From positions 70,592 to 121,383 of the forward strand of contig JBAYKL010000001.1 of the NCBI GenBank assembly GCA_041664585.1: a DNA stretch of 50,792 nt, read 5' to 3'. The notes under the pieces were generated by a model that saw only the letters and a list, made by a program, of their open reading frames with translations, was not told the DNA's origin and ran no database searches. The position numbers and the translations under genes were made by a program. How positions within the stretch are numbered: position 1 is the stretch's first letter; each line of letters begins with the position of its first letter. This document shows, one piece after another, positions 9,561 through 41,026 of this stretch. Origin of the DNA: Minisyncoccota bacterium. GTDB lineage: Bacteria > Patescibacteriota > Minisyncoccia > Phycocordibacterales > GWA1-40-21.

Positions 9561-9561
9561 T

Positions 9562-17289: not shown

Positions 17290-17409
17290 TCAATCGCTGT
17301 CGAAATCCCAGTCTTTACCAGTAATAAACTGGGTGGAATCGCCACAATCTGCAGAAGAAACCATCTCCGGTGTCTCAGCAAATTGAACACCAAACGGCTG
17401 TTTTTTCAT
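17290..17409 (-). CDS. graspetide (microviridin-like RiPP) precursor peptide, 39 aa
   Basis: Not in the ORF track. GGAGGTGA (comp. 17416-17423) lies 6 nt before the ATG (comp. 17407-17409). Encodes MKKQPFGVQFAETPEMVSSADCGDSTQFITGKDWDFDSD, ending at TGA (comp. 17290-17292). Sits 30 nt downstream of the ATP-grasp maturase. Leader is PFxxxF-type; the core is rich in Thr, Lys and Asp. Confidence 0.7.
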   Translation of the reverse strand: MKKQPFGVQFAETPEMVSSADCGDSTQFITGKDWDFDSD

Positions 17410-17439
17410 ATTTTATCACCTCCTTTCTATATCTTTAAT

Positions 17440-18414
17440 TTATGAACTACGATGTCCTTTTACAAGAACAGAAGCAATTGATTTACTTATTGGTAAACCT
17501 AGAATTCTTTCAATCCAGAGCCATTGACCATTAGGATTAATTTCTAAAAATATATATCCTAATTTTTTATTAAATATCAGATCAATAGCACCGAAAGACA
17601 GGCCGAGATTTTTGACTAAACCCAAACACTTATCAGAAATGTCCTTGGGTAAAGTCTCAATTTCGTGACGAAGCAATGTAGGATCTCGTCTCCAGTCTAT
17701 CTCAGTTACTGAAGAATTCTGTGAAAATATTTTCTCAGCAAAAATCTGATCGCCAACAACTGTAACACGCACCTCGTAAACCTTTTCTATATATTCTTGA
17801 AATAAACAAGGTGCAATAGTTATCTGACTCAGATCTTGTAGGTGTTTTTCTTCAACGATATTTGTAAAAAACACATGAAAGTCATCAATGGTTTTCCCTT
17901 TCTTTTTTGGCTGATGAAGAACTTTATAAATAACCCTTTTGTGTTTTTCCACAAAAGCAGCTACATCGTTCGGGCTGTTTGTAACGAGAAAATTTGGAAT
18001 TTGAAACCCCATATTTCTCGCAAAGTTAAGCTGAAAAATTTTATTTCCAGCAACCCTATTAAGAAAGGGGTGGTTTAAGAAAAAAACCTTTTCTCTTAAA
18101 CTCAACCAAATACCATCCCACGTTTCCCGTTCTTCACCTTCAGCAAACTCTTTTTGCCAAGGTACAGACACATCGTCTCCCCCAGATTTAAATACTGGAC
18201 GACGATACCATATACTTGATACATCTTCAAAAGACATGGTGTCTTTATTGCCGTTGACAATATTAATGCCACCACTATCAACAACAACAGAAAACTTTTC
18301 CCCATTTTCTTTTATATCAAGTATAACTGGGCAACCCCCCATTAATTTTATCTGTTCTACTACCGGATGCACATGTTGATCAATCTCCGCCGATAATATA
18401 ATAATATTTTTCAT
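17440..18414 (-). CDS. RiPP ATP-grasp maturase (MdnB/MdnC / MvdD family)
   Basis: 324 aa. Blocks VSSIWYRR, NKIFQLNFARNMGFQIP, FQEYIEKVYEVRVTVVGDQIF, DWR and FGAIDLIF..YIFLEINPNGQWLWIE match my recollection of the microviridin ligases. AGGTGG lies 5 nt before ATG at comp. 18412-18414; the track start is GTG. Confidence 0.85.
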   Translation of the reverse strand: MKNIIILSAEIDQHVHPVVEQIKLMGGCPVILDIKENGEKFSVVVDSGGINIVNGNKDTMSFEDVSSIWYRRPVFKSGGDDVSVPWQKEFAEGEERETWDGIWLSLREKVFFLNHPFLNRVAGNKIFQLNFARNMGFQIPNFLVTNSPNDVAAFVEKHKRVIYKVLHQPKKKGKTIDDFHVFFTNIVEEKHLQDLSQITIAPCLFQEYIEKVYEVRVTVVGDQIFAEKIFSQNSSVTEIDWRRDPTLLRHEIETLPKDISDKCLGLVKNLGLSFGAIDLIFNKKLGYIFLEINPNGQWLWIERILGLPISKSIASVLVKGHRSS

Positions 18415-18597
18415 ATCAACCACCTTCTTGTTAAAGACCTCGTTATCCCAACACCATGTTGGAATTTCTGCATTAATGGTCGCACAGACTTGATTTTAAG
18501 TCAAAACAGTTGTAAACAGATAGTTTTTTGCTAAAAATTATTAAAAACTAGCTGGCACATTGTTTTAAAAGGTTTTTTGTATTATGATTTATATGTA

Positions 18598-19899
18598 ATG
18601 AATATTTTGTTTATATCAAGAGAGTGTATAGCTGGTAACCTAGCTATTTTGCTTAAAAAAGAAGGACATAATGTAAAACTTTTTATTAATGCTAAACATG
18701 ATAGGCAAAATTTTGATAACCTCGTAGAAAAAACAAACTCCTGGAGAAAAGAGCTGAATTGGGTAGGAAAAGAAGGTTTAATTGTATTTGATGACGTTGG
18801 ATATGGAAAAACACAAGACTCACTTAGAAAAAAAGGTTACAAAGTATTTGGTGGATGTGAGCTTGGCGATAAATTAGAAAAAGATCGTGAATTTGGACAA
18901 GAAATATTTAAGAAATACGGATTAAAAACAGTTGAGCTTAAGGATTTCCACGACATCGAAGATGCCATACATTTTATAAAGAAAAATCCAAAAAAATGGG
19001 TTATAAAATGTAACGACCATAGCAGTAAATTTCTTACCTATGTTGGAGAATATGAATGCGGAAAGGATACTATTAGCGTTTTGAAAAATTATTTTAATAA
19101 TAGACACATAAAGAGAGACAGGATAACTTTACATGAGAGAATCGAGGGTATAGAAATGGGAGTCGGAAGATACTTTAATGGTAAAGATTGGGTTGGACCT
19201 ATTGAAATAAATTTTGAACACACAAAAATGTTCCCGGATGATGTTGGTCCCATTACAAGCGAAATGGGTACATTAGCTTGGTATGAGGAAGATGAAAGCA
19301 ACAAACTTTTCGTTGAAGTACTCGAAAGACTTAAACCATATTTGCAAGAAATAAACTTCAGGGGAGATTTCGAAGTAAATTGTATCGTAAATGAAAAAGG
19401 ATGCTTCCCTCTTGAAGCCACAGCCAGATTAGGCACACCGATAATTCACTTACACAGTGAACTACATACATCTCCATGGGGTGAATTTATGTATGCAATT
19501 GCTAATGGAGATAAATACGATTTAAAATACAAGAAAGGTTTTGGAATCGTAAACTTAATTGCAACTCCTCCATTTCCTTACGGAAAAAAGCATAGCAAAG
19601 AAACTCTGTATGGAATCAATATATATTTAGATAAGCTTACAAATAATGAGCTCGAGAGTTTCCATTTTGAAGGAATATCTATGAGAGTTGGTAAACATGA
19701 CGGACAATATTTCATTTCTACAGATGAAGGCTATATTGCATATACGACATCAGTAGCTAGTACAGTAGAAAAAGCTAGACAAAACAGTTTGGATATCATT
19801 AAAAAAACAGTTATACCAAAATCCTTCTACAGAAACGACATTGGAAAAGATTTCGAAAAAAGACTTCCAGATCTTAGAAAATGGGGATATATAAAATAA
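18598..19899 (+). CDS. PurD-like ATP-grasp protein (divergent phosphoribosylamine-glycine ligase family)
   Basis: The order of blocks matches PurD: EHTKMFPDDVGPITSEMGT (cf. HKR..D.D.GPNTGGMG), LEATARLGTPI (cf. EFNCRFGDPE), and C-terminal FYRNDIG. The N-terminal GGREHA motif is absent. ATG at 18598; the track start is TTG. Confidence 0.6.
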   Translation: MNILFISRECIAGNLAILLKKEGHNVKLFINAKHDRQNFDNLVEKTNSWRKELNWVGKEGLIVFDDVGYGKTQDSLRKKGYKVFGGCELGDKLEKDREFGQEIFKKYGLKTVELKDFHDIEDAIHFIKKNPKKWVIKCNDHSSKFLTYVGEYECGKDTISVLKNYFNNRHIKRDRITLHERIEGIEMGVGRYFNGKDWVGPIEINFEHTKMFPDDVGPITSEMGTLAWYEEDESNKLFVEVLERLKPYLQEINFRGDFEVNCIVNEKGCFPLEATARLGTPIIHLHSELHTSPWGEFMYAIANGDKYDLKYKKGFGIVNLIATPPFPYGKKHSKETLYGINIYLDKLTNNELESFHFEGISMRVGKHDGQYFISTDEGYIAYTTSVASTVEKARQNSLDIIKKTVIPKSFYRNDIGKDFEKRLPDLRKWGYIK

Positions 19900-21082: not shown

Positions 21083-21113
21083 ATGTTTAGTAAAGAGATC
21101 TTTGAAAGGAGAC

Positions 21114-22028
21114 ATGAAAATGAAGATTGTAAGATTAAAATGTTTTTCCTACTCAGACACGGAAAAGACTGAGTGGGAAAGTGCCCTTTTTCATCCAATT
21201 AAAGACTACAAATTTTCTGTGATGACAAAGGATGGTTTAACAATTGAGTGCGCTACATTTGAACTAATAGAGGGTGGCAAACACGAAGTGCACGCTTGCG
21301 TATCCTCTCAGGCTGGGTGTAAGTTTGGATGTAAGTTTTGTACTTCGGGTAAACACGGTTTTGTTAGAAACTTGAGTGCAGAAGAGATAGAAGAACAAAT
21401 ACATCTAATGGCAAAACACTTTGGCATACAAAGTTTTGACCATGTGGTGTATATGGGAATAGGAGAACCATTGGATAATCTTGAAAATGTAGGGCAAAGT
21501 ATTAGCTCTATAGTCAAAGCCAACCCATGGTACTCTGGTAAGATATCTTTATGCACCGCTGGGGTAACAGATAGTTTTAACCGCTTACTTGAGCTCAAGC
21601 TACCTCTGCGATACATGTGGTTATCTTTACATGCAGCGACTGACAATAAACGTCGTTTGATAATGCCGATCGCAAAATTAAACGGCATCGACCAATTAAT
21701 TAATACTGTGGGTGATTTTTCAGATAAATCTGGAATACCAACATGTGTTAATTACATGATACTGCATGGGTTTAATGACCTAGATGAAGATGTGATATCA
21801 CTCACTAAACTACTGGGTCAAACCACTAGCAGATTAAAATTAATGATAACCATTCCTAATGGAAGTATTGAGGGTTACAAATCTGGAACAAAAGAGGATA
21901 CAAAAAACTTCCAACAAAGACTTGTTGAAGCTGGGATAAAAAATCGGATTGTCCGTTTTTTGTCTGCGGGTAGACCAGTCAATGCTGGGTGTGGCGAACT
22001 TATCTTCATACCACAAAATCACAAGTAG
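21114..22028 (+). CDS. RlmN/Cfr-family radical SAM rRNA/tRNA adenine methyltransferase, lacking the N-terminal accessory domain
   Basis: ACVSSQAGCKFGCKFCTSGKHGFVRNL (C-X3-C-X2-C plus the upstream mechanistic Cys), YMGIGEPLDNLENV, LSLHAATD, and C-terminal NAGCGEL (second mechanistic Cys). The start is ATG 21114 or 21120; the track start is TTG. Confidence 0.8.
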   Translation: MKMKIVRLKCFSYSDTEKTEWESALFHPIKDYKFSVMTKDGLTIECATFELIEGGKHEVHACVSSQAGCKFGCKFCTSGKHGFVRNLSAEEIEEQIHLMAKHFGIQSFDHVVYMGIGEPLDNLENVGQSISSIVKANPWYSGKISLCTAGVTDSFNRLLELKLPLRYMWLSLHAATDNKRRLIMPIAKLNGIDQLINTVGDFSDKSGIPTCVNYMILHGFNDLDEDVISLTKLLGQTTSRLKLMITIPNGSIEGYKSGTKEDTKNFQQRLVEAGIKNRIVRFLSAGRPVNAGCGELIFIPQNHK

Positions 22029-22057: not shown

Positions 22058-22088
22058 GCACCAGGGTTAAAACCCTGGTGTTTTTTAT
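22058..22088 (+). terminator. Rho-independent terminator
   Basis: caccaggg (22059-22066) pairs with ccctggtg (22073-22080), followed by tttttt (22081-22086). Confidence 0.7.
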
Positions 22089-22125: not shown

Positions 22126-23244
22126 TTAAGGATAGGTAATGTTATTTTTTAGTCTTGGATAAATAATGGCGTCTCTTATATTATCGCGACAAAGTGCCCA
22201 AGTAATAAGTCTCTCTACTCCAAGCCCAAAACCTGATGTTATTTGATAGTTCGGCAATTTACGTAGATCAATATACCAATCATAAGATTTTGAAGGTATG
22301 TTTTGCCTTTTAAGTGACTCAAGCATTTCTTGGTCATTATCTTGACGCTGACCACAACCAACAATCTCACCACCAAATGATCCGTCAATCAGAGGGGGAA
22401 ATATTAAATCAGCATTTATGGCCTTGTCCTTATTGTAAGAATCTGGTTTTTGATAAAAAGGAACTCTATCTCTATCATAATTTTTAATCCAAAGTGGTAT
22501 TTTCAAACCCAATATCTTCATAACCTCGATCTCTCCCCCAGAACTTATATCCCTACCAGACTCTGTAACTCTAACTAAATCACCCTTACCATTTTTTAAA
22601 AGAAGATCAACAGCCTCATCAAAAGTTATCTGAGGAAACTCTTTAGCTATAGAGATATTTCTAAAAGCGTCAAGAGAAACTTTAGAATCTAAACTAAGAC
22701 ACTTGATTATGTTCGGCATAGATAAAAATAGTTTGGACACTGTTTTTATATAACCCTCTATTATTGGTAACAATTTATTAATATCGCCTTTTATTTCGGC
22801 TTCACAGTGGAAAAACTGATTAAGATGTCTTTTGTCTGGATTTTCACCCCTCATCGAAGGTAAATAACAATATACTATGTCTAGACCATTCATTAATAAC
22901 GGCTCAAATCCAAACTGAGAAGAATCAACCAAAAAAGAATCTACTTCACCAAATTTTATAGGGATAACCTCCGAATCAGAACCTGGGCCCATAGGGGAAG
23001 ATACGCTAGATGTAATCATAAAAAGATCCACATTCTTTGCTTTGTTTTCTACCCCAAAATAATAATCAGAAATGACTTTAAAATAATGTCTCAATACTAT
23101 AAGTGCCTGAAAATACTTACTTCTTGTTAATTCCTTATAATGAGTGCTGGAGTTATATTCAGGTAATAAAAAATCTTCTTTTAATTTTTTATTAAATATT
23201 TTATCATCATTCTTAATTTGTTTTAATATATTTTTATTTATCAT
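22126..23244 (-). CDS. AsnRS/AspRS-like class IIb catalytic-core paralog without anticodon-binding domain (archaeal-type AsnA-like candidate)
   Basis: PSMRGENPDKRHLNQFFHCEAEI (motif 2), PLWIKNYDRDRVPFYQKP, DLIF..GGEIVGCGQRQ, YDWYIDLRKL, and GFGLGVERLITWAL (motif 3). No N-terminal OB fold. Confidence 0.7.
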   Translation of the reverse strand: MINKNILKQIKNDDKIFNKKLKEDFLLPEYNSSTHYKELTRSKYFQALIVLRHYFKVISDYYFGVENKAKNVDLFMITSSVSSPMGPGSDSEVIPIKFGEVDSFLVDSSQFGFEPLLMNGLDIVYCYLPSMRGENPDKRHLNQFFHCEAEIKGDINKLLPIIEGYIKTVSKLFLSMPNIIKCLSLDSKVSLDAFRNISIAKEFPQITFDEAVDLLLKNGKGDLVRVTESGRDISSGGEIEVMKILGLKIPLWIKNYDRDRVPFYQKPDSYNKDKAINADLIFPPLIDGSFGGEIVGCGQRQDNDQEMLESLKRQNIPSKSYDWYIDLRKLPNYQITSGFGLGVERLITWALCRDNIRDAIIYPRLKNNITYP

Positions 23245-23699
23245 TTTTTATAATCTATTTTAGACACACGACGGCAGTATCTTTTTTTATTTAAAAATTT
23301 TGTTTTTAAAAACAAATCAATTATATCAAACAAATCTTTCTTATCAATAAAACGTGATGCGATTGCCAAAGAATTAATGTCGTCATGCTCCCTATAATTT
23401 TTAACTATATTCTTATTACCTCCATACCAAATACCGCAACGAATTCTTTTGTATCTATTTAAAACAATTGATTCCCCCATACCTGAGCCACCAAAAATTA
23501 GAGCTCTGTTATTAATATTTTTAGAAAATTTGGATGCAAGCGGATGGAAAAAATCTGGAAAATCATCATCTTTATCATAAGATAACGCACCAAAATCTAG
23601 AACAGAGTAGCCACTATTAACTAAATATTTTTTAACTTTCTCTTTTAAATAAAATCCAGCGTGGTCTGCTCCTAAATAAATTATTATTTTTTTATCCAT
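23241..23699 (-). CDS. RpiB/LacA/LacB-family sugar-phosphate isomerase
   Basis: IIIYLGADHAGFYLKEKVKKYL and FGGSGMGESIVLNRY resemble ribose-5-phosphate isomerase B. ATGA overlap with the downstream gene. Confidence 0.7.
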   Translation of the reverse strand: MDKKIIIYLGADHAGFYLKEKVKKYLVNSGYSVLDFGALSYDKDDDFPDFFHPLASKFSKNINNRALIFGGSGMGESIVLNRYKRIRCGIWYGGNKNIVKNYREHDDINSLAIASRFIDKKDLFDIIDLFLKTKFLNKKRYCRRVSKIDYKK

Positions 23700-23710
23700 T
23701 GTATAAAAGA

Positions 23711-24916
23711 TTATTTTTTAAAATTATTTAATACTAATTCTAGACCAAAACAGCTACCAAAAAATCTTTCTTTCGTATCTGATGTTAGTTTAGAAACCCA
23801 ATCAGATGACCCGCCGTCGGCCAAACTCATCTCTTGACCTTCTGGATTAGTCCCTTTTATTTTAAAACAAACTCCGTTGTAATAGCCAACCCCAGCAGGT
23901 CTAGATAAGTCATACATGAAATCAATATTGGGAAACTTACCTCTTAATACAGAAATATAATTTGCATCTAATCTTTTTAATGTATTGATAGAAGTAATAA
24001 TATCCCTATTCGACCCATCATACTTAACATCTTTAATTGACTTTACCTTACCAGGTAATCCAACATTTACCGTCTCAAACATTTCTAGACTTTTCCCTCT
24101 TATATTATCCGTTATAATATTCCTATCAAAAACACCAGAATTAACAAGACTCTCTACTATTTTAATATCAGAAAGATAAACTTTTATGTTTTTTATTTCA
24201 AAACCTAGGTTATCCATTTTCCCTAAAATACCTAACCAGTAATCTAAATGTGTGTGCATCGCCTGTTCCTCAAAACCCTGTTGCCCTATATTCCTTCCAG
24301 AAGAAGTTAGATTGAAAGCAGAAAAATGCTGACAAAGATGTTTCTGGTAAAATTTTTGAAGTCTTAATACCCTACACGAATTAGCCAATTTTATATCACC
24401 GATATCTTTTCTTTCAGAAGTCTCCCAGCGACTATCCTCCATTTTTCTCCTTGCAGATTCTAATGACATAGAAATAGTTGAGTCACTAACAACCTCGGTA
24501 CTTCTTATGGTTTGTAATGCAGTTTTTGAGTTTATGTTTGTTAAAACACTACTTGAACCAACTGGAACAATAGGAGAAATTTCAACTAGGTCAAAGCCTT
24601 CTGGAAGATTACTCATTAAAAACAATTCTACTCTTTTAAGCTCTACTACATCTATCTTTGATGGTACAGTAAACCTATTTCCATTATAATTTTCCATTAA
24701 ATCTCTAGGTGTTAATTTCCCAATCCTTTTATTACAAATTCCCATTAACACACTACCCAATTCAGAAGAATTCAACTTCTCGGTCATCACATTGGAAAAT
24801 TTATCCGACTGGTCTCCCAAGTACTTTCTAACAAAATCGATTCCCTCTTCATCTTCTTTCACGATATTATTGGGTGATTTTAAATTATCGTCCTCTGATG
24901 AGTATGGGCGGGTCAT
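23711..24916 (-). CDS. HisRS/HisZ-like class II aaRS-fold paralog (degenerate motifs, no anticodon-binding domain)
   Basis: GVGYYNGVCFKI (cf. HisRS GLDYYTGxVFE) and LADGGSSDWVSKL...FFGSCFGLELV (cf. GGGRYDxL...GFaxGxERl). The motif 2 region is degenerate. Confidence 0.45.
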   Translation of the reverse strand: MTRPYSSEDDNLKSPNNIVKEDEEGIDFVRKYLGDQSDKFSNVMTEKLNSSELGSVLMGICNKRIGKLTPRDLMENYNGNRFTVPSKIDVVELKRVELFLMSNLPEGFDLVEISPIVPVGSSSVLTNINSKTALQTIRSTEVVSDSTISMSLESARRKMEDSRWETSERKDIGDIKLANSCRVLRLQKFYQKHLCQHFSAFNLTSSGRNIGQQGFEEQAMHTHLDYWLGILGKMDNLGFEIKNIKVYLSDIKIVESLVNSGVFDRNIITDNIRGKSLEMFETVNVGLPGKVKSIKDVKYDGSNRDIITSINTLKRLDANYISVLRGKFPNIDFMYDLSRPAGVGYYNGVCFKIKGTNPEGQEMSLADGGSSDWVSKLTSDTKERFFGSCFGLELVLNNFKK

Positions 24917-26157
24917 ATTATTTTATATTTTATCAACTTATTAACAGTATCTATTACATTATTAATCTCATTTAAATCTTTAGAAAAAATAGAATATTCA
25001 AAAAGAGGTGTCGGTAAATCAGGATAAGTTTTTAACTCCATCCCAATTTCTGAAATTATTTTTACATTACATAAGTTTTTAATATTTTTCAGAGAATCTA
25101 AACCAGAGATTTCTTTTAAAATACCCGAATGTTTAATCTGTGGGTAAAATAATTCATGATAATTAATACCTTTAGAGAAATAGTTTAACGGTATTGAATT
25201 ACCCAGCCAACAATCGTACATTAAATTAAGCATGTCAATACCATACACTCTATCATAGGTTTCGTGTATTAAAGCTCCGGCCATTCTACCTGCAATTTCA
25301 ACCAAATAAGGTTCCCCATCCTTGATCCTAAATTCAGCATGAAATGGAGAATTTATAAAGCCAAGCGTTTCTATTATACTTTTCAAATATTTATTAATAA
25401 CTTCTTGTTCCTTCTCTGTTAGTCTTGCAGGTATATAACTTGCTACCTGTGTAAAATAAGGTTCCTTACCCATTATAAATTCAATAGAACCAATAACTGA
25501 AATTTGTCCTCCGACAACAAAACCATCTAACGATATCATCTTTCCTGGAACATACTCTTCTATAAGCATGTTTCCATGGAAACGTTTAAATGATTCTCTA
25601 TGTTCTTGATTTACAGTTGCTCTAATAGTTTCAGATATTTTTTTATAATCAAAAAAATCACTCTCAATCAACAAGACGCCGTGGCTTGACGTTCCAAAGA
25701 TTGGTTTAATTACGCAAGGTTTAGGAAAAGCTCTTAGAATTTTTTCATTGTCATCAAAAATATTAAAAATATCGAAATCAGGCTGTCTAATTTTACTTTC
25801 TCTTAGTTTCACCCTCATAGCAAGTTTGTTACTTGAAGTAACCCTTGAAGAAATCTGTCCTATACTTTTGCAACCTAACAAACTAGCGATATCAGAAGTA
25901 GCCACAACTAAATCTTCACTAAAGGTACCGACAGCATCAATTTTAAGATTATTTTTTTCACAAAAGAAAATGGTTTCTTCAGTTATTGTTTGCAGATTAA
26001 AAACATCTGTTATTAAAATATCTTCCCGAGGTAAGTATTTTAAAAACATCTCATTAAATTTATTTGCAACCATTATTATACGATAGTTTTTTTCTCGAGC
26101 CTTCTTTAAAAGAAATTCCTTTGGACTATTGTGCTCTATAATAATTATTGTTTTCAT
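24913..26157 (-). CDS. ATP-grasp carboxylate-amine ligase (L-amino-acid-ligase / D-Asp-ligase-like size class)
   Basis: PCVIKPIFGTSSHGVLLI, MLIEEYVPGKMISLDGF and HAEFRIKDGEPYLVEIAGRMAG. 414 aa. ATGA overlap with the downstream gene. Confidence 0.75.
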   Translation of the reverse strand: MKTIIIIEHNSPKEFLLKKAREKNYRIIMVANKFNEMFLKYLPREDILITDVFNLQTITEETIFFCEKNNLKIDAVGTFSEDLVVATSDIASLLGCKSIGQISSRVTSSNKLAMRVKLRESKIRQPDFDIFNIFDDNEKILRAFPKPCVIKPIFGTSSHGVLLIESDFFDYKKISETIRATVNQEHRESFKRFHGNMLIEEYVPGKMISLDGFVVGGQISVIGSIEFIMGKEPYFTQVASYIPARLTEKEQEVINKYLKSIIETLGFINSPFHAEFRIKDGEPYLVEIAGRMAGALIHETYDRVYGIDMLNLMYDCWLGNSIPLNYFSKGINYHELFYPQIKHSGILKEISGLDSLKNIKNLCNVKIISEIGMELKTYPDLPTPLFEYSIFSKDLNEINNVIDTVNKLIKYKII

Positions 26158-26171
26158 ACAATTTAGTTTGT

Positions 26172-27179
26172 TTATTGAACGGCAGCTTCTTTAATAAAAA
26201 TCTTTTTATTCTTTGTATCTATTCCGACCTCAACACCTAATGGAAAAGTAAGTAAAGGTTTTGTATGCCCACAATCGATATTTGCCAAAATCGGTAAATT
26301 GTATTTTTTTGAGATTTCTTTTAAGAGTTTTCCCAAAGACCTCTTTGCTCCGCCAGATTCTTTAAACCCTCCAGAAACATTACCAAAAATTAGTCCATTA
26401 ATTTTTTCAAAAACACTATTTCTCTCCAATTCAATTATATATCTCTCATACCAGTCCGTCGACAACCCAGATTCTTCAAGAAATAAAATAGCACCGTTTA
26501 AATTGAAAAAACTCTCTTCTTTCATCAACATTACAAAAGTCTGTAAATTTCCACCAAAAAGACTCCCGGAAAAAGTCCCTTTTGGACCAAAAGAAACAAT
26601 CTTAGGTGATTCAACCATTTTCAACTTCTTATTATCTTGTTTTTCCCAATACTGATTATCAATTGAATATTTTTTAGCTTTCGGCAACAAGCCTACGCCT
26701 TTCTTAGAACTAATCAACTTCTCAAACTGATCAAAAGTAAAGGAAACAGAACCTTCAAATTCCCCGAAACTCGGCAAAAGTGTCGGTCCATGAAATGTTA
26801 CTATTTTGCTTTTTGACGTAATCATCAAAAGTAATGTCGTAATGTCTGAGTAACCACAAAAGATCTTCGGATTACTAGCTATCAATTTATAATTAATATA
26901 AGGCAAAACAGCATTAGCAGTAAGACCACCGGTTGAACATAAGATAGCGTCTATCTTTTTATCAGCAAAAGCGTTGTTTATATCTAAAGCTCTGTCTTTG
27001 GCTTTTCCACCGCTATAACCATCCGTTTTTAAAGCGCTTGGCATCATCTTAATCTTATAACCTCTTTTTTCTAAGAAGGCCACAGCTCTTCTCGTTCTTT
27101 TAGGAAACCTAGATATATCAGAAGAGGGACTAATGATAGCAATCGTGTCTCCCCTTTTTAAAGCTTTTGGTTTTAACAT
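26172..27179 (-). CDS. S66 peptidase (LD-carboxypeptidase LdcA / microcin C immunity MccF family)
   Basis: Catalytic-triad contexts: FCGYSDITTL (Ser), FLEESG (Glu), DCGHTKPLLTFPLG (His). Confidence 0.85.
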   Translation of the reverse strand: MLKPKALKRGDTIAIISPSSDISRFPKRTRRAVAFLEKRGYKIKMMPSALKTDGYSGGKAKDRALDINNAFADKKIDAILCSTGGLTANAVLPYINYKLIASNPKIFCGYSDITTLLLMITSKSKIVTFHGPTLLPSFGEFEGSVSFTFDQFEKLISSKKGVGLLPKAKKYSIDNQYWEKQDNKKLKMVESPKIVSFGPKGTFSGSLFGGNLQTFVMLMKEESFFNLNGAILFLEESGLSTDWYERYIIELERNSVFEKINGLIFGNVSGGFKESGGAKRSLGKLLKEISKKYNLPILANIDCGHTKPLLTFPLGVEVGIDTKNKKIFIKEAAVQ

Positions 27180-27189
27180 TTTAAAAAAA

Positions 27190-28002
27190 TTAAATACCTA
27201 TCTTCCTTGTTTTAAATAATTCCATTTCGTCTTTTTGCGATCTTTTTTGAAATAAAAAAATGGAATATTGAGCATACTTCAAATTTTGATTAAATAATTC
27301 AATAAACTTACTGTATTCTTTTTTTAGAACGTCTCTCTCTTTCTCGGGCAACTCCTGAAGATGTTTCTTACTAAAAATTTCTTCCACATAATTATTAATC
27401 TCTTTCTTTTTATCTTCATAACGGTAGGAAGACTCATATACCAACTCTAAACTTAAACCCGAATCTAGAGACATTTTCCTTACTAAATTTAACCAATAAT
27501 TCTTATCCCAAACTTGTATTTTTGAACCTATAGCGTTTGATATTTTATTAACAATAGATACTGGAGGTTTTTTAAAATAATAAATTGGAATAATTATTAA
27601 AATTCCACCCATTTTTAAAACTCGTAAATACTCAGAAAGGGCTTTTTCTTTATCATCAATAAATGATGTTACGTTACTTGCCCAGACAAAATCAAATGAT
27701 TCGTTCTCAAATGGAAGATTTAAAGCGCTTGCCTTAATAAAAGAAACTTTATTTTCTACCCCATTTGCTTTTGCATATTTCCTAGCCTCATCAATAGATT
27801 CGTCAACCATGTCTATACCAACAACCTGACCACCCGTGAGTAAACTTATATTTACACTCGTAAAACCAGTATTTGACCCGATCTCTAAAAGACGATGTTT
27901 TGGTGAAATAAAAGCATTCTTTACAACTTCATGCACTGTTTTTATACCGCCAGATGGACGGTTCCTTTCTTTAACTACACCAACAATTTCTGAGTAATTC
28001 AT
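27190..28002 (-). CDS. class I SAM-dependent methyltransferase
   Basis: Motif I LLEIGSNTGFTS, GIDMVDESI, and FDFVWASNV...LKMGGILII. Confidence 0.8.
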   Translation of the reverse strand: MNYSEIVGVVKERNRPSGGIKTVHEVVKNAFISPKHRLLEIGSNTGFTSVNISLLTGGQVVGIDMVDESIDEARKYAKANGVENKVSFIKASALNLPFENESFDFVWASNVTSFIDDKEKALSEYLRVLKMGGILIIIPIYYFKKPPVSIVNKISNAIGSKIQVWDKNYWLNLVRKMSLDSGLSLELVYESSYRYEDKKKEINNYVEEIFSKKHLQELPEKERDVLKKEYSKFIELFNQNLKYAQYSIFLFQKRSQKDEMELFKTRKIGI

Positions 28003-28082
28003 TATATTTTATATGTATAAAACTATATTAAACATATCAAGAGAAATGATAAAAAGCAAGATATATAAAATTAAAATTATGA

Positions 28083-28088
28083 TATAGT
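28083..28088 (+). promoter_or_regulatory. -10-like hexamer TATAGT 6 nt before ATG 28095; possible leaderless start
   Basis: tatagt at 28083-28088. No SD before the ATG. Confidence 0.3.
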
Positions 28089-28094
28089 ATCCTA

Positions 28095-28832
28095 ATGAAA
28101 GATACATTTGGTAAACAACTTTTTGCTCAGTACAAAAACAGAAAACTCTTAACCGAAATAGTGGAAAGAGATGATGGATTTATAGAAGAAAGTTCTTATG
28201 CCAGTCGTTATTTTAATAGTTATAAAAAATGGAGTCGCATAGAAAAAGAGGCAATGAAATTAATAAAAGGACCAACTTTAGATATAGGTTGCGGTGCTGG
28301 TAGGCATGCCTTGTATTTACAGAAAAAGGGTGTAGATGTTGTTGGAATTGATAATTCTCCACTGGCAATTAAGATCTGCAAACTTAGAGGTCTAAAAAAT
28401 ACAAAAATATTATCTATTGATGAAGTGGAAAAAATAGAAGAACGTCATTTTAATTCCATACTAATGTTAGGAAATAACTTTGGATTATTTGGCAGTTCTA
28501 GAAAAATAAAAACTATTTTAAAAAAGCTAGACAAAATAACCACAAAAAAATGTAAGATAATTGCTGAATGTGTAGATCCCTACAACACAAAAAACCCAGT
28601 CCACCTTAAATATCATAAATTCAATAAAAAAAGAAATAGGATGCCAGGCCAATTAAGACTGAGAATTAATTACAATAATATTAAAGGTGAATGGTTTGAT
28701 TATCTATTTGTTTCTATAAAAGAAATAGACAATTTATTAAAACACACGAACTGGAAAATCAGTGAAGTACTTGAAGAAAATAAATCTATCTATATAGTGA
28801 TTTTAGAAAAAAATAATTTTATGTTACTCTAA
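28095..28832 (+). CDS. class I SAM-dependent methyltransferase
   Basis: Motif I LDIGCGAGRHALYL, GIDNSPLAI, and LMLGNNFG. Its 3' end overlaps the alaS stop by 9 nt (convergent). Confidence 0.75.
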   Translation: MKDTFGKQLFAQYKNRKLLTEIVERDDGFIEESSYASRYFNSYKKWSRIEKEAMKLIKGPTLDIGCGAGRHALYLQKKGVDVVGIDNSPLAIKICKLRGLKNTKILSIDEVEKIEERHFNSILMLGNNFGLFGSSRKIKTILKKLDKITTKKCKIIAECVDPYNTKNPVHLKYHKFNKKRNRMPGQLRLRINYNNIKGEWFDYLFVSIKEIDNLLKHTNWKISEVLEENKSIYIVILEKNNFMLL

Positions 28833-30668
28833 AACAGCTTTTATACGTCTAACCCCAGCACTTGAAGCTTCTTCTTTAGAAATTTTAAAATGTCCAAGTT
28901 CAGATGTATTTGATACATGAGGTCCGCCACAGAATTCTGTACTAAAATCCCCAATTTTATAAACCTTCACGACATCTCCATATTTTGATAAATCAAAAGA
29001 AAGAGTTGTAACAATTTTCTTTGCTTCTTCTTTTGGCAATTCAAGCATTTCTACTACAATATTTTCTTGTATTTTTTGATTTACTAAATCTTCAACTGCT
29101 TTTAATTGATCTGTAGTAAGTTTCTCGGCCCAATTGAAATCAAAGCGCATTCTTTCTGCTGTAATATTGCTTCCTTTCTGTACAATTTCTCCACCAAGGA
29201 CTTTTCTAAGTGCCGCGAGTAATAAGTGTGTAGCTGTGTGATACTTAATTGTAATCTCACTATCATCCGCCAATCCCCCCTTAAATAATCCTGCCGAGGC
29301 AGTTCTTGAAAGATTCTGATGCCTTTTCAATTCTTCCTCAAATTCTTTTTTATCAACTACAACACTTTTCTCCTTTGCAAGTTCATTAGTCATCTCAAAA
29401 GGAAATCCGTATGATTGGTATAAATAAAATGCATCCTTTCCAGTAACTTTTGCAAGTTTGTCAAATTCCTTTAAGCCTTTTCCTAGTGTCTCACGAAACT
29501 TATTCTCCTCTTTTTCCAATTCATCAAAAATTATTCCCTTGTTTTTTTCTAATTCTGCATATTGATTTTTATACATTCCGATAACAACTTCTGCAATAAA
29601 TTTGGTAAAATTATTTTCTATTCCTAATAGATGTCCAAAACGAATCGCACGTCTAATTAAGCGGCGCAAAACATAACCGCCTTGAACATTGCTCGGCACG
29701 ATTCCGTCAGCAATTAAAAAAGTAGCGGCTTTTAAATGATCCGCAATCACGCGCATATCATAAGCGCTAGCCGATTCCTCGTATCTTTTACCGGATATTT
29801 CCTCAATTTTTTGAATAATAGGTACAAATAGATCTGTTTTGAAAATATCTCGGTCTCCATTCTTTGCCGCTAGAATTCTTTCTAATCCACCACCAAAATC
29901 GATGTTACCATTTGTAAGTAATTCAAAACCCCTTTCCGTTTTTACATATTGCATAAAAACATTATTACCAATTTCCAAAAACCTACCACAATCACAATTC
30001 ACATGGCATGGCTGATCCTTAAATTCTGAGCTTTCGTGCAAATGAAACTCTGAACCAAAATCCCAAAACATTTCACTGTCTGGTCCACCTGGCTCACCTA
30101 AAGGCATACTATTCGGAACACCAGAACGTGACCACCAATTTTTCTGAACATCATAATAAAAAATTCTGCCATCTTTCATCCCATTTTTTTCTGAATAATC
30201 AATTACTTCTGCATTAACACCCACACACCTAAATAATTCTTTCCAGGTATTAACAGCATCATCATCTCGCGAGATTTTTAATGTCTTATCTCCTCGAAAA
30301 ACTGTGACATAAAGATTTCTTGGATCAAGCCGAATCTCTTTAATCAAAAATTCAAACATCCAAGTAATCTGCTCTTTTTTAAAATAATCACCAAAAGACC
30401 AATTACCGAGCATCTCAAACATTGTCGTGTGCCTATTGTCGCCAACCTCTTCAATATCTACAGCTCTAAAACATTTTTGCGAATCAACAATTCTAGTTCC
30501 CATGGGATGTTTTTCCCCCAATAAATATGGCACCATTGGTTGCATACCGGAACTGGTAAAAAGTGTAGTTGGGTCATTTTCTGGAACCAAAGACGCTGAG
30601 GGAGTAATTATATGCCCCTTAGATTCAAAAAATTTTAGGTATTTTTCACGTAGTTCATCTGCCTTCAT
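28824..30668 (-). CDS. alaS: alanyl-tRNA synthetase, short form (catalytic + tRNA-recognition + editing domains, no C-Ala domain)
   Basis: N-terminus ELREKYLKFFESKGH...FTSSGMQPMVPYL. Editing-domain motifs HTATHLL and CGGPHV. 614 aa. Confidence 0.9.
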   Translation of the reverse strand: MKADELREKYLKFFESKGHIITPSASLVPENDPTTLFTSSGMQPMVPYLLGEKHPMGTRIVDSQKCFRAVDIEEVGDNRHTTMFEMLGNWSFGDYFKKEQITWMFEFLIKEIRLDPRNLYVTVFRGDKTLKISRDDDAVNTWKELFRCVGVNAEVIDYSEKNGMKDGRIFYYDVQKNWWSRSGVPNSMPLGEPGGPDSEMFWDFGSEFHLHESSEFKDQPCHVNCDCGRFLEIGNNVFMQYVKTERGFELLTNGNIDFGGGLERILAAKNGDRDIFKTDLFVPIIQKIEEISGKRYEESASAYDMRVIADHLKAATFLIADGIVPSNVQGGYVLRRLIRRAIRFGHLLGIENNFTKFIAEVVIGMYKNQYAELEKNKGIIFDELEKEENKFRETLGKGLKEFDKLAKVTGKDAFYLYQSYGFPFEMTNELAKEKSVVVDKKEFEEELKRHQNLSRTASAGLFKGGLADDSEITIKYHTATHLLLAALRKVLGGEIVQKGSNITAERMRFDFNWAEKLTTDQLKAVEDLVNQKIQENIVVEMLELPKEEAKKIVTTLSFDLSKYGDVVKVYKIGDFSTEFCGGPHVSNTSELGHFKISKEEASSAGVRRIKAVLE

Positions 30669-30779: not shown

Positions 30780-31301
30780 TTATTTACATAAATATTTATC
30801 CAAATACACTCTAGCCTCTTTCAAAAAAGTCTGATCTCTCTGCGCTATGTATGTACCACCGACAAAATTAGTCGTGTTGATTTTGTTTAGAGCACGAGTT
30901 GCATCTTCATAAGAAAGCCAAACCTCTCTAAACCCATTTTTGATTTCATCTTCAGTAAAACTTGGTTTACCTTTCTTCCCATTAACCTTCACTAAATAAC
31001 AATATGAAATTTGTTTTAGTTTAGATTTGTTTCTATATTCTGTAATTAAACCAATTTCATTAACAACATCAACATTACAGCCTATCTCTTCCAAACATTC
31101 TCTTTTTAGTGCCACTATTTTGTCTTCTGTATCTTCTATCCCGCCACCTGGCAATTTATAATAATCATCTTTTGATGCAAATAATAAAGCAATCATCCCA
31201 TTTTCATCAAACACAACCGCACGTGCCGCCTCGCGTAATTTAAAGCTTTCTGCTTCAAAATCAGAAATATTATCTGGATTTATTAATTTAATTTGCTTCA
31301 T
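30780..31301 (-). CDS. NUDIX hydrolase
   Basis: Nudix box GGGIEDTEDKIVALKRECLEEIGCNV. Confidence 0.8.
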   Translation of the reverse strand: MKQIKLINPDNISDFEAESFKLREAARAVVFDENGMIALLFASKDDYYKLPGGGIEDTEDKIVALKRECLEEIGCNVDVVNEIGLITEYRNKSKLKQISYCYLVKVNGKKGKPSFTEDEIKNGFREVWLSYEDATRALNKINTTNFVGGTYIAQRDQTFLKEARVYLDKYLCK

Positions 31302-31651
31302 ATTTTTATTACCTCAATCGCCCAGACCCCATATTTTGGAATATTTTCTTTATATTCGTGAAAGGTATCAAATCTTTCAACGGCTTTTTCTATGCTTAAA
31401 ACACTCGAAAGAGCATTCCTTGTACCTTCGGCTTCTAGAAGTTCTCTAAAATCCTTGTAATGTCTTATACCCAAGATATTAACAACCATTACTTCATTGG
31501 TAACATTGTTTGTAAAAGTTATTGTATCCCCTATTTTAAAATCACTGTAGAGAAAATCGTAGTGACTATTTTGCACCCTGTTTTCTATTTTCTTTGTACC
31601 CGCCTTTATTGCCTTAAAAGGAACGTCATTTAGATCTAAATTGTAATTCAT
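31298..31651 (-). CDS. ASCH-domain protein
   Basis: 117 aa. FKAIKAGTKKIENRV...GDTITF...VNILGIRHYKDFRELL fits the ASCH beta-barrel pattern. ATGA overlap with the downstream NUDIX gene. Confidence 0.55.
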   Translation of the reverse strand: MNYNLDLNDVPFKAIKAGTKKIENRVQNSHYDFLYSDFKIGDTITFTNNVTNEVMVVNILGIRHYKDFRELLEAEGTRNALSSVLSIEKAVERFDTFHEYKENIPKYGVWAIEVIKI

Positions 31652-31653
31652 AA

Positions 31654-32157
31654 TTATTTATACACAGCAATTAATTGTCTTATTACAAGTTCTTCTGGTT
31701 TTATATTCTCTCCAGTGAAATCAAACCAGACTTTCATAAAGTCTTCTCTCATAATTTTCCTTTCTTTTCCTATCTCTGGGTCTTGGAGATAGATATAATC
31801 ATCATCAAGCCCTATTACCACAGAATAGTGCCCGTCAGCCACCTCTGAATCATTATAATCGCTTCTTCCTCTAGTAAACCAATCCACGATAACTGGAACT
31901 CCTTTATTAAGCCATAATTCTACATCCTCAAATGTACTATCGTTTTTTACTTCCGTACTAAAACCAAGTATTTTAGCTGCTTCAATAATATCTTTATCAA
32001 TAACTCCAATTCCAGGTGTAAGATTAGTTAACTTCGCCAATTCATTTTCACTTTTGTTTACACCATAATAATCCATTACTATTTTAAGAGAAGCTGGGCC
32101 ACACATATCTGCATGAAGAGTTTCTTGAAATGGTTTTGCGTCTAATTTTATATTCAT
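31654..32157 (-). CDS. stand-alone C39-like papain-fold cysteine peptidase
   Basis: Candidate catalytic Cys in MCGPASLKIVMDYYG, candidate His in DGHYSVVIG, and Asp in LQDPE. Confidence 0.55.
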   Translation of the reverse strand: MNIKLDAKPFQETLHADMCGPASLKIVMDYYGVNKSENELAKLTNLTPGIGVIDKDIIEAAKILGFSTEVKNDSTFEDVELWLNKGVPVIVDWFTRGRSDYNDSEVADGHYSVVIGLDDDYIYLQDPEIGKERKIMREDFMKVWFDFTGENIKPEELVIRQLIAVYK

Positions 32158-32633
32158 AATATTTTTCTTAAAATTATCTCCGTAGTCTCTTCTGGAGTTT
32201 GTTCAGAATTATCAATTATTTCTCCAAAAGATGGGTTATTTATCCCAATATCATAGTGATGTTTTATTCTCTCTCTTTCCCAGTCATTTAATTCTCTGGT
32301 CCCCCTATTTGTAAGTGTTTTTTCTATTTTAGGCGAAAGAGTGAAAAAGTAAATTTTAGTATCAATGTCCTTTAAACAATTCATTATGTAATCATAGTTT
32401 TTTTGAGATACTGGGTACGGAACAATCACATTCAAACCTCTATTTGAGAAATTCTTGATTACAGAAATGGCATTTTCTAGATTTATTGGTACAGCCTGAT
32501 CGATCGGCATCCACTCAGTCATTGTATGAAATACATCGATTTCTAATAAAGCTGAATTAGAAAGCTTAGTTGATAAGATCTTAGCAACTGTAGTTTTACC
32601 GGCATTTATTGACCCATTAATGAAAATTACCAT
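32154..32633 (-). CDS. P-loop NTPase/kinase (TmrB-like / AAA_33-type small kinase)
   Basis: The Walker A motif INGSINAGKTT sits at the extreme N-terminus. 159 aa. ATGA overlap with the downstream gene. Confidence 0.55.
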   Translation of the reverse strand: MVIFINGSINAGKTTVAKILSTKLSNSALLEIDVFHTMTEWMPIDQAVPINLENAISVIKNFSNRGLNVIVPYPVSQKNYDYIMNCLKDIDTKIYFFTLSPKIEKTLTNRGTRELNDWERERIKHHYDIGINNPSFGEIIDNSEQTPEETTEIILRKIL

Positions 32634-33061: not shown

Positions 33062-33697
33062 ATGAAATTATTCTTATCTGGCGGTGGAGGAGCTGAAGAT
33101 TCAATCTTGTTAGACAAAAAGTTTGTTGAAGCCGTCGGCAAAGACAAACCGCTTTTATATATTCCTATTGCAATAAATACTGACAAATATCCATATCCAA
33201 GCTGTTATAATTGGATAAATAACACACTCAATCCTTTAGGTATAACAAATATTGAAATGTGGACCGAAAAGGAAGTTTGGGAGAAAAGCGAGGAAGAATT
33301 ACAAAAATTTGGCGGAGTATATATAGGTGGTGGAAACACCCCATATCTTTTAAAAGAATTGAAAGATTCTGGTTTCTTTCTAAAACTAGAAAAACTCATA
33401 AAAAATAACATACCTATTTACGGTGGAAGCGCCGGAGCAATAATATTCGCAAGAACTATTATTCCTTCCCTATCAGCTGACGCAAATGATGTGGGGCTAA
33501 CAGATTTCAGTGGAATGAATCTGGTTAAAGGTTACGATATATGGTGCCATTTTACTCCTGAGATGGATAATCAAATTATGGAATACAAAAATAAATATGG
33601 GCTTAATAAAATTGCAATACTACCAGAAAATGCTGGATTATATGTAACAGATGATAAAATAGAAGAAATTGGTTTAGGGAAAGTTAAATATATATAA
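33062..33697 (+). CDS. S51 peptidase (dipeptidase E / cyanophycinase family)
   Basis: LFLSGGGG, VYIGGGNTPYLL, and the nucleophile context IYGGSAGAII. Confidence 0.75.
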   Translation: MKLFLSGGGGAEDSILLDKKFVEAVGKDKPLLYIPIAINTDKYPYPSCYNWINNTLNPLGITNIEMWTEKEVWEKSEEELQKFGGVYIGGGNTPYLLKELKDSGFFLKLEKLIKNNIPIYGGSAGAIIFARTIIPSLSADANDVGLTDFSGMNLVKGYDIWCHFTPEMDNQIMEYKNKYGLNKIAILPENAGLYVTDDKIEEIGLGKVKYI

Positions 33698-41024: not shown

Positions 41025-41026
41025 TT

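Follow-up and report, generated by a model that had tools for sequence, protein, structure and literature searches.

Agrocin 84, encoded by plasmid pAgK84 of Agrobacterium radiobacter K84, and microcin C, encoded by the mcc genes of Escherichia coli, are the characterized antibiotics closest to the system described here. The agrocin gene agnA, assigned to the production locus (PMC4392301), encodes a truncated homolog of asparaginyl-tRNA synthetase (AsnRS) without an anticodon domain, which was proposed to link an acyl moiety to adenosine monophosphate (AMP) via a phosphoramidate bond (PMC8323819, PMC4392301). On the map of pAgK84, agnA, annotated as “asparagine synthetase A”, is found directly upstream of agnB1 and agnB2, the latter being the gene for LeuRS immunity. 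An S66 peptidase gene occupies the fifth position in the agnC operon, and the plasmid further encodes an ABC exporter and has two NUDIX genes. MccF of the microcin C system is an S66 peptidase, the residue W186 of which stacks on adenine (PMC8323819). According to a 2021 review, agn-like clusters occur in Ensifer and Actinobacteria only (PMC8323819). Here, we analyze a six-gene operon (positions 22126–28002, minus strand) in a 50,792-nucleotide stretch of contig JBAYKL010000001.1 of a Minisyncoccota bacterium from the Patescibacteria, which we call the window. The window stems from metagenome contigs, and its low G+C content and the lineage labels of its closest homologs point to the candidate phyla radiation. 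We consider it fairly likely that the operon is a biosynthesis and self-protection cassette for a nucleotide antimetabolite that mimics aminoacyl-adenylates, of the kind of agrocin 84 (TM84) and processed microcin C.

The operon and its six proteins

In the order of transcription, the operon encodes a 270-residue class I S-adenosylmethionine (SAM)-dependent methyltransferase of putative AgnB1/MccD type (27190–28002), a 335-residue S66 serine peptidase assigned to the MccF clade (26172–27179), a 414-residue ATP-grasp ligase of predicted L-amino-acid-ligase type (24913–26157), a 401-residue protein denoted X401, predicted to be a class II aminoacyl-tRNA synthetase (aaRS)-like core with the fold of histidyl-tRNA synthetase (HisRS) and without an anticodon-binding domain (23711–24916), a 152-residue RpiB-type sugar-phosphate isomerase (23241–23699), and a 372-residue AgnA-like truncated AsnRS catalytic core (22126–23244). 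The gaps separating the methyltransferase from the peptidase, the peptidase from the ATP-grasp ligase, and X401 from RpiB are 10, 14, and 11 nucleotides long. Four-nucleotide ATGA overlaps, read directly in the sequence, join the stop codon of the ATP-grasp gene to the start of X401 (24913–24916) and the stop codon of rpiB to the start of the AsnRS core (23241–23244). Internal promoter-like and terminator-like predictions are not more common than in shuffled sequence. The anatomy of the six genes is that expected of a single operon. A previous sequence-only reading of this DNA described six minus-strand genes with gaps of 10–14 nucleotides or ATGA overlaps, and all of its coordinates were reproduced. 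Its six domain calls were likewise each confirmed, five by Pfam or NCBIfam and that of X401 by a fold search and profile alignment with hhalign.

The only Pfam domain of the AsnRS core is tRNA-synt_2 (PF00152, E-value 6e-26). The oligonucleotide-binding (OB)-fold anticodon-binding domain is absent according to Pfam, and the alignment to the asnS model begins at model position 127. The best match in the PDB is formed by residues 173–429 of P. horikoshii AsnRS, which are its catalytic domain (102 bits). The similarity to AgnA of pAgK84, with 30% identity over 341 residues and an E-value of 2e-46, is stronger than that to any AsnRS (102 bits) or archaeal AsnA (25 bits) in the PDB; the archaeal AsnA structure 3p8t scores 24.7 bits. 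The NCBIfam AsnA models match with an E-value of 6e-41, yet model NF005055 gives 140.6 bits against a cutoff of 389, and all scores for AsnA and AsnS models are far under their cutoffs. In the alignment of the AgnA-like family, class II motifs 2 and 3 are kept, and the pocket is of the AsnRS type (Q..xE) and not of the AspRS type (Q..KQ). The sequence-only reading, an AsnRS/AspRS core with clean motifs 2 and 3 and no OB-fold, therefore agrees with Pfam, the PDB match, and the alignment. The signature SSPMGxGSDS is common to the family, including AgnA, and is missing from canonical AsnRS. The AsnRS core is a member of the AgnA family, in which it belongs to a separate 372-residue subclade relative to AgnA. 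The pocket together with motifs 2 and 3 would fit an Asn-like substrate able to donate its amide nitrogen, as in microcin C. The top 120 database matches are 346–386 residues long and 61–69% identical to the AsnRS core, and the few of them with source names come from Patescibacteria lineages or are simply called AsnRS. A homolog from a Bradyrhizobium plasmid shares 57% identity. The RefSeq name for the AgnA-like homologs is “asparagine synthetase A”.

The methyltransferase contains a Methyltransf_11 domain (Pfam, 2.6e-21). Its top match among 72,556 plasmids is AgnB1 of pAgK84, with 41% identity, 99% coverage, and an E-value of 2e-54. It shares 31% identity over 171 residues with E. coli MccD (2e-26). 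These similarities indicate a SAM-dependent enzyme of the AgnB1/MccD type, closest to AgnB1, which may transfer either a methyl or an aminocarboxypropyl group. The methyltransferase and AgnA-like genes belong to the same operon in the window without being adjacent; they are adjacent in many related loci.

The S66 peptidase has N- and C-terminal Peptidase_S66 domains (Pfam, 1.9e-36 and 4e-25). A sequence search of the PDB returned MccF of B. anthracis (BaMccF, 7.5e-57) and of E. coli (EcMccF, 1e-55), and LdcA-type entries matched at 9e-19 to 6e-9. Along its full length, the peptidase shares 36% identity with E. coli MccF, and the identity to the S66 protein of pAgK84 is 30% over 334 residues (2e-47). 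Its Ser/Glu/His triad aligns with S118/E243/H311 of MccF, and the equivalent of Trp186 is also kept. The triad and Trp186 equivalents are retained in 42–43 of 43 aligned S66 sequences from related loci, AgnC5, and plasmids. E. coli LdcA (EcLdcA) also aligns a tryptophan at the position of W186, so this residue alone does not discriminate MccF from LdcA; however, the long loop bearing the tryptophan and the overall scores do separate them in the alignment. The window peptidase scores 189 bits to MccF and 78 bits to EcLdcA, and in 47 of 47 S66 proteins from the related loci the MccF score is approximately 1.3- to 4-fold above that for E. coli LdcA. The match to PRK11253 reaches 103 bits (1e-29) relative to a cutoff of 378. 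The peptidase can therefore be placed in the MccF clade and not with LdcA. The intact contexts of the catalytic Ser, Glu, and His residues and the option of an MccF function, both put forward in the sequence-only reading, are in line with these comparisons.

X401 has no sequence match in Pfam, NCBIfam, or the PDB, and the profile of its family also gave none against the PDB. An AlphaFold model of X401 was calculated from ten homologs, with a pLDDT of 72 and a pTM of 0.71. Foldseek matched the model exclusively to the structures of HisRS, HisZ, and the HisRS-like domain of GCN2 (E-values about 1e-10, probability 1.0, TM-score about 0.5), including HisZ structures 8oy0, 6ftt, and 5m8h at about 4e-10. 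hhalign placed X401 residues 329–395 on residues 247–312 of E. coli HisRS, which cover the RGLDYY, GGRYD, and motif 3 region, and the profile comparison shows that the HisA arginine is kept. The model thus suggests a HisRS-fold class II aaRS-like core. The sequence-only reading had called the protein HisRS- or HisZ-like, which Foldseek confirmed, and hhalign aligned the very motifs that it quoted. Its suggestion of a HisZ is not supported, since HisG of the window is long-form with its own regulatory domain and X401 has no Pfam or NCBIfam match. The hisG gene, including the HisG_C domain, spans positions 40146–41024 of the plus strand and is directly followed, within the region 40146–41347, by hisI, encoding phosphoribosyl-AMP cyclohydrolase. 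A long-form HisG makes a HisZ partner unnecessary. To our knowledge, histidine-pathway genes are unusual in an organism with a small genome.

The conserved genomic partners of X401 are the S66, methyltransferase, and AgnA-like genes. A word-index search found 11 relatives of X401, and a full scan with a hidden Markov model found 2097 representative clusters; X401 thus belongs to a large family for which Pfam has no entry. A fusion to a GNAT acetyltransferase was seen in six of the eight extended family members examined. Distant 300-residue members from Polyangiaceae and Chroococcidiopsis lie outside clusters of the type described here, and the family therefore has other roles too.

The ATP-grasp protein matches Pfam ATP-grasp_4 (1.6e-22), as expected from the 414-residue ATP-grasp ligase of the sequence-only reading. 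Its NCBIfam matches to BacD (38 bits) and DdaF (32 bits) are weak and far under the cutoffs, and Ddl models give 30 bits, relative to cutoffs of approximately 245. These scores suggest an L-amino-acid-ligase type rather than a Ddl or D-Asp ligase. Homologs are located beside the AgnA-like and methyltransferase pair on plasmid pBTZ_2 of Bacillus pseudomycoides (28% identity, 1.7e-29) and in two related loci, L001 and L013. The RpiB-like protein matches PF02502 (1.6e-32) and exceeds the cutoff of TIGR00689 (114 bits vs 88.3), and RpiB-specific models score under their cutoffs. By our own reading, its motif GGSGMGE is a Glu-type active-site motif. Among the related loci, RpiB occurs in L013 only. 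Because it is missing from the others, RpiB is an accessory gene outside the conserved core; the isomerase call of the sequence-only reading stands.

Related loci and plasmid clusters

A scan of species-representative genomes with the AsnRS core identified 48 loci. Linkage was counted over 49 independent anchored loci, with the window left out. Open reading frames (ORFs) of the loci were called, the proteins were clustered, and the recurrent families were annotated, whereas many neighboring genes stayed unannotated. Most of the loci belong to Patescibacteria, and the remainder include plasmids of Bradyrhizobium and Calothrix. In 44 of the 49 loci, at most 7 kb separate the AgnA-like gene from an MccF-like S66 gene, and the exceptions are mostly short contigs. 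A methyltransferase from the same family occurs in 28 of 49. The sequence-only reading had named conservation of the neighborhood as a check on its proposal, and this co-occurrence indeed recurs. L013 contains all six genes of the window, and L001 and L002 contain five in the same order. Elsewhere, the gene order varies; four architectures recur, and this speaks for selection on linkage and not for shared ancestry alone.

Nearly every locus also has a second class II aaRS-like core, the forms of which are mutually exclusive. The HisRS-like X401 is found in 16 of the 49 loci, never together with the AlaRS-like partner that is present in 14, most of them labeled Patescibacteria. The AlaRS-like core is approximately 380 residues long, and its profile matches AlaRS in the PDB at 6.6e-9. 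Four loci contain a divergent LysRS-like form with a weak OB fold, and there are also ProRS/AgnC1-like forms. A weak AgnC1-like gene (E-value 4e-4) occurs in a single locus, L054.

Further genes of the related loci resemble parts of the microcin C system. A pyridoxal-phosphate-dependent ornithine/diaminopimelate decarboxylase like the N-terminal domain of MccE lies between the S66 and X401 genes in L045, and a RimL-type GNAT like the C-terminal domain of MccE is encoded in L054. S-adenosylmethionine (AdoMet) decarboxylase genes adjoin the AgnA-like and methyltransferase genes in L030 and L055. Genes for S51 peptidases, a family that includes MccG (PMC9239234), occur in the window and, close to the AgnA-like gene, in L003, L013, L015, and L023. 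Other recurrent genes encode NUDIX, HD, and APH-like kinase proteins. By analogy, these accessory genes appear to match the tailoring and immunity chemistry of microcin C.

The cassette is not confined to the candidate phyla radiation. It is present on plasmid 2 of Calothrix parasitica and on plasmids of Bradyrhizobium elkanii and B. barranii (57% identity). Xenorhabdus bovienii CS03 has AgnA-like, methyltransferase, S66, nucleoside phosphorylase, and other genes, followed by LeuRS, a ProRS-like core, and an MFS exporter. In Peribacillus psychrosaccharolyticus, genes for an ATP-grasp ligase, an MFS transporter, a 595-residue AlaRS, and an AlaRS-like core are divergent from those for the methyltransferase, AgnA-like protein, and S66 peptidase; the AlaRS-like core matches the profile derived from the 14 loci (A2/f4) at 1e-12. 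Plasmid pBTZ_2 of B. pseudomycoides encodes an ATP-grasp ligase, an extra GluRS, a methyltransferase, and an X401 homolog, as well as an MFS transporter and an S66 peptidase. The group of genes containing X401 is approximately 15 kb from that of the methyltransferase, AgnA-like protein, and ATP-grasp ligase, and the X401 homolog is 31% identical to X401 of the window and 42% to that of other loci. Streptomyces sp. NBC_01707 has AgnA-like and methyltransferase genes and, further along, a class IIa aaRS-like protein and an S66 peptidase, and also an MFS exporter. The cassettes of these plasmids of Xenorhabdus, Peribacillus, B. pseudomycoides, and Streptomyces, all cultured bacteria, look like parts of complete producer clusters. 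Our literature search found no product described for the Peribacillus, B. pseudomycoides, Xenorhabdus, Streptomyces, or Bradyrhizobium plasmid clusters.

The extra full-length synthetases, which are AlaRS in Peribacillus, GluRS in B. pseudomycoides, and LeuRS in Xenorhabdus, look like immunity genes by analogy. ProRS-like cores are paired with LeuRS and the Bacillus X401 with GluRS, and the AlaRS-like core alone is paired with the matching aaRS. Because the type of the second core mostly mismatches the linked aaRS, its fold does not tell which acyl group is involved. The idea that a HisRS fold implies a histidyl product was dropped, given the GluRS beside the Bacillus X401 homolog and the LeuRS beside ProRS-like cores.

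Several loci have peculiarities of their own. In L003 from Shapirobacteria, a 63-residue ORF and a 329-residue protein without a Pfam match (8777–9985) occupy the position of the ATP-grasp gene between S66 and X401. The 329-residue protein was considered as an ATP-grasp counterpart and rejected, as it is unrelated to ATP-grasp; the pair may represent a different ligase or a small peptide substrate. In L067, from Pantoea agglomerans plasmids, a GNAT acetyltransferase forms the N-terminal part of a fusion with the AgnA-like core (7404–8999, 531 residues). The fusion adjoins an MFS transporter, and genes for TonB, ExbBD, and siderophore receptors are nearby. Divergent LysRS-like paralogs of 416–462 residues, with a weak OB fold and an altered ATP/Mg motif, are located beside the S66 gene in L028 (12964–15773), L032 (13005–14327), L053 (7459–8709), and L038 (2622–3935). 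In L028, one is directly upstream of a canonical LysRS. The LysRS-like paralogs could be resistant copies of the target or enzymes that install the acyl group.

Proposed product and competing explanations

We hypothesize that the AgnA-like core binds ATP together with an Asn-like substrate and creates either an acyl-N-P (N-acyl phosphoramidate) or an acyl-adenylate bond to AMP. In doing so, it would take the part of the unrelated ThiF-type MccB in microcin C, and that proposed for AgnA in agrocin 84. The AgnB1/MccD-like SAM enzyme may decorate the phosphate or the acyl part. The HisRS-fold core would activate and install or exchange the acyl or amino-acid group on which the choice of the inhibited aaRS depends. 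The ATP-grasp ligase could attach another amino acid as a handle for uptake, in the manner of a “Trojan horse”. The MccF-like S66 peptidase is predicted to cleave the carboxamide bond beside the nucleotide, which would either shield the producer against warhead that is still unprocessed or be part of processing, and RpiB may serve as an accessory that supplies ribose 5-phosphate or alters the sugar. Of the two possibilities raised in the sequence-only reading, that of a small cluster that makes an aminoacyl-nucleotide antimetabolite and includes an MccF-like gene is favored by the AgnB1/MccD-like methyltransferase, the AgnA-like core, the S66 peptidase of the MccF clade, and the plasmid clusters with exporters and extra aaRS genes.

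Several points weigh against this proposal. We infer both the product and the single reaction steps, and the N-P chemistry of the AgnA-like core is an analogy, as MccA and MccB were not found. The operon has neither an adjacent exporter nor a clearly dedicated immunity aaRS. In X401, the arginine of motif 3 is replaced by leucine, and the protein may not adenylate; the acyl group, moreover, is not revealed by the fold, given the B. pseudomycoides homolog beside GluRS and not HisRS. The equivalents of MccF Asn220 and Lys247, which we take to be Asp-binding positions, are not conserved in the S66 alignment. Because these positions are changed, the substrate of the S66 peptidase probably differs from the aspartyl compound of processed microcin C. 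The 372-residue subfamily, which is 57–69% identical across many Patescibacteria, could also suit a housekeeping role. Finally, the biosynthetic pathway of agrocin 84 itself is called unknown in a review (PMC8323819).

It is also possible, albeit somewhat unlikely, that the AgnA-like and S66 proteins act as a pair that N-adenylylates the Asn amide and cleaves off aspartate to yield adenosine 5'-phosphoramidate. An interchangeable second core (HisRS-, AlaRS-, ProRS-, or LysRS-like) would then acylate the nitrogen and set the target aaRS, so that mimics of aminoacyl-adenylates would be made without tRNA and in a programmable manner. If so, the S66 peptidase would be a biosynthetic enzyme, not an immunity factor, and Patescibacteria would be a large unrecognized reservoir of aaRS inhibitors, perhaps used against their hosts.

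An island for resistance alone is unlikely. Here, the MccF-like peptidase would hydrolyze aminoacyl-nucleotide antibiotics of others, such as the hosts of episymbionts, and the truncated aaRS cores would be decoys or binders, with no synthesis taking place. Stand-alone MccF homologs do confer resistance (PMC8323819), S51 and GNAT genes recur nearby, the HisRS-fold family is often fused to GNAT (6/8 extended members), and no exporter adjoins the window operon. However, AgnA belongs by name and literature to a production locus (PMC4392301). The co-occurring AgnB1/MccD-like SAM enzymes, pyridoxal-phosphate-dependent and AdoMet decarboxylases, and ATP-grasp ligases are tailoring enzymes that would be useless for detoxification, and the plasmid versions resemble producer clusters in having exporters and extra aaRS copies.

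Rather unlikely, too, is a pathway that makes a modified nucleotide or a conjugate of an amino acid for internal use (a cofactor, a signal, or a compatible solute, for instance) and not an antibiotic. The wide occurrence of the cassette in Patescibacteria with small genomes, the window without an adjacent exporter or immunity gene, and the recurrent NUDIX, HD, and kinase genes would fit such a role. In contrast, the sole characterized relatives are antibiotic clusters, and the plasmid cassettes are paired with duplicated aaRS genes and MFS exporters.

Housekeeping genes that are neighbors by chance are a quite unlikely explanation. The AsnRS core would then be a tRNA-independent asparagine synthetase of the archaeal AsnA type, the S66 protein an LD-carboxypeptidase that serves in murein recycling, RpiB an isomerase of the pentose-phosphate pathway, and the rest unrelated. 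The match to NCBIfam AsnA (6e-41), the RefSeq name, the RpiB score over the subfamily cutoff, and the 57–69% identity of the 372-residue proteins across many Patescibacteria agree with this view. However, the AsnA and AsnS scores are far under their cutoffs (141 vs 389 bits), and archaeal AsnA in the PDB scores only 25 bits. The spread is patchy, extending to plasmids from Bradyrhizobium, Calothrix, Agrobacterium, Xenorhabdus, and Bacillaceae, and the linkage to the MccF-type S66 and AgnB1-type methyltransferase genes persists through several gene orders.

Highly improbable is the other possibility of the sequence-only reading, tailoring and recycling of peptidoglycan stems or cross-bridges, in which the ATP-grasp ligase adds an amino acid, the AsnA-like core amidates, and the S66 peptidase trims D-Ala: although the S66 family includes LdcA (PRK11253 match, 1e-29) and ATP-grasp ligases of the Ddl and D-Asp-ligase types do act on peptidoglycan, LdcA is much more distant from the window peptidase than MccF is, the long loop with the adenine-stacking tryptophan is retained, the ATP-grasp protein does not appear to be of the Ddl or D-Asp-ligase type (30 bits vs Ddl cutoffs of about 245), no cell-wall genes (mur, fem, pbp) were recognized in the gene strings of the 49 loci, many neighbors in which are unannotated, and the HisRS-like and AlaRS-like cores and the AgnB1/MccD-like enzyme would be left without a role.

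The proposed antimetabolite cassette has a minimal conserved core of the AgnA-like protein, the MccF-like S66 peptidase, and the AgnB1/MccD-like SAM enzyme, to which a swappable second aaRS-like module is added. This core provides a testable scheme for the synthesis of an acyl-phosphoramidate warhead and the reprogramming of the target aaRS, while agrocin 84 biosynthesis is still unsolved. Cassettes of the aaRS-inhibitor type are indicated to be common in bacteria of the candidate phyla radiation, the small genomes of which are thought to be poor in biosynthetic clusters. They are also present on plasmids of culturable Bacillaceae, Xenorhabdus, and Bradyrhizobium, in which experiments are easy.

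The rest of the window and comparison with known systems

The operon is preceded by a divergent intergenic region of 92 nucleotides (28003–28094), which likely contains its promoter. A promoter scanner listed no sigma-70-like site in this region, and the region contains no suitable ORF for an MccA-like peptide. A G+C-rich hairpin with a ten-pair stem (22058–22081) separates the AsnRS core from a convergent radical-SAM gene. It probably ends the transcripts of both genes, with a T-run on the plus strand only. PADLOC matched no defense system, apart from a generic methyltransferase.

The convergent gene (21102–22028, plus strand) encodes a 308-residue RlmN/Cfr-like radical-SAM protein that scores 153 bits to TIGR00048 (cutoff 290), and the AgnA-like gene has the same neighbor in L038 and L053. 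The protein might be an adenine C-methylase that acts on rRNA or on the nucleotide product. Farther from the operon, a divergent PurD-like ATP-grasp protein of 440 residues (18577–19899, plus strand) scores 93 bits to the purD model (cutoff 288), and the corresponding neighborhood of L053 contains a copy with 45% identity. An MvdD-type ATP-grasp maturase of peptides that are made by ribosomes and modified after translation (17440–18423, minus strand) matches TIGR04184 at 1.8e-60, under the cutoff. It is followed by a 39-residue ORF, MKKQPFGVQFAETPEMVSSADCGDSTQFITGKDWDFDSD, with a tail rich in Thr, Lys, and Asp. The ORF resembles a graspetide precursor, and region 17290–18423 looks like a candidate graspetide cluster.

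On the other side, just upstream of the operon, lies a gene for a short AlaRS of 614 residues (28824–30668, minus strand), which is 47% identical over the full length to the extra 595-residue AlaRS of the Peribacillus cluster. It is preceded on the same strand by NUDIX, ASCH, C39-like peptidase, and P-loop kinase-like genes (30780–32633). No evidence ties this AlaRS to the operon; it could be the housekeeping enzyme or an immunity copy. An S51 peptidase gene (33062–33697, plus strand) is 5 kb from the operon. A second MccF-like S66 paralog (38944–39930, minus strand) scores 177 bits to BaMccF and 97 bits to EcLdcA. An ABC ATPase gene (37961–38947, minus strand) overlaps it by four nucleotides, and two ABC-2 permease genes follow (36372–37974). 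This unit (36372–39930) could serve the export of, and immunity to, the same or a related compound. It is located 8 kb past the upstream end of the operon, with no evidence tying it to the operon.

The window proteins are 30% identical to AgnA, 41% to AgnB1, and 30% to the S66 peptidase of the agrocin 84 system. Like the window, pAgK84 encodes a second, remote class II aaRS-like protein, the ProRS-like AgnC1 (PMC8323819), and has NUDIX genes on the same replicon. In contrast, counterparts of the LeuRS immunity gene AgnB2 and the exporter AgnG are neither in nor beside the window operon, and the short-chain dehydrogenase/reductase, amidohydrolase, dioxygenase, radical-SAM, agnD, and agnE tailoring genes are not in the window. 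In their place are the HisRS-fold core, the ATP-grasp ligase, and RpiB. By analogy, X401 appears to fill the slot of AgnC1; AgnC1 and AgnC0 did not match the profiles of the HisRS-like (X401) and AlaRS-like cores. The RlmN/Cfr-like protein of the window has no specific similarity to AgnC7.

The operon shares with microcin C an MccF-type S66 peptidase (36% identity) and an MccD-type SAM enzyme (31%). It differs in that the MccA precursor peptide ending in Asn, MccB, and the MccC pump were not found. No homolog of the ThiF-type MccB was detected in the window or in any locus, nor was an equivalent of MccC found, and the place of MccB is presumably taken by an enzyme derived from an aaRS.

The archaeal AsnRS-like asparagine synthetase A (AS-AR) and HisZ resemble the two window cores in being class II cores without an anticodon-binding domain, and both act without tRNA. 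However, the AsnRS core of the window is far under the AS-AR family cutoffs and has different genomic partners, and HisZ pairs with a short-form HisG, whereas that of the window is long-form.

In our literature search, neither the occurrence of the cassette in Patescibacteria nor the combination of AgnA, MccF, and AgnB1/MccD as a shared module was described. The statement of the sequence-only reading that it knew of no described system with this exact gene combination has to be limited, as pAgK84 has agnA and agnB1 along with genes for an S66 peptidase and another aaRS-like protein (PMC8323819). Because MccA and MccB of the mcc system and AgnC1, AgnB2, and AgnG of the agn system were not found, the operon lies outside both named systems. 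The agrocin and microcin C systems, treated as separate classes, are linked by the shared MccD/AgnB1-type and MccF-type enzymes, and the gene content of the operon suggests that it is a variant of the agrocin/microcin-C-type clusters of aaRS inhibitors.

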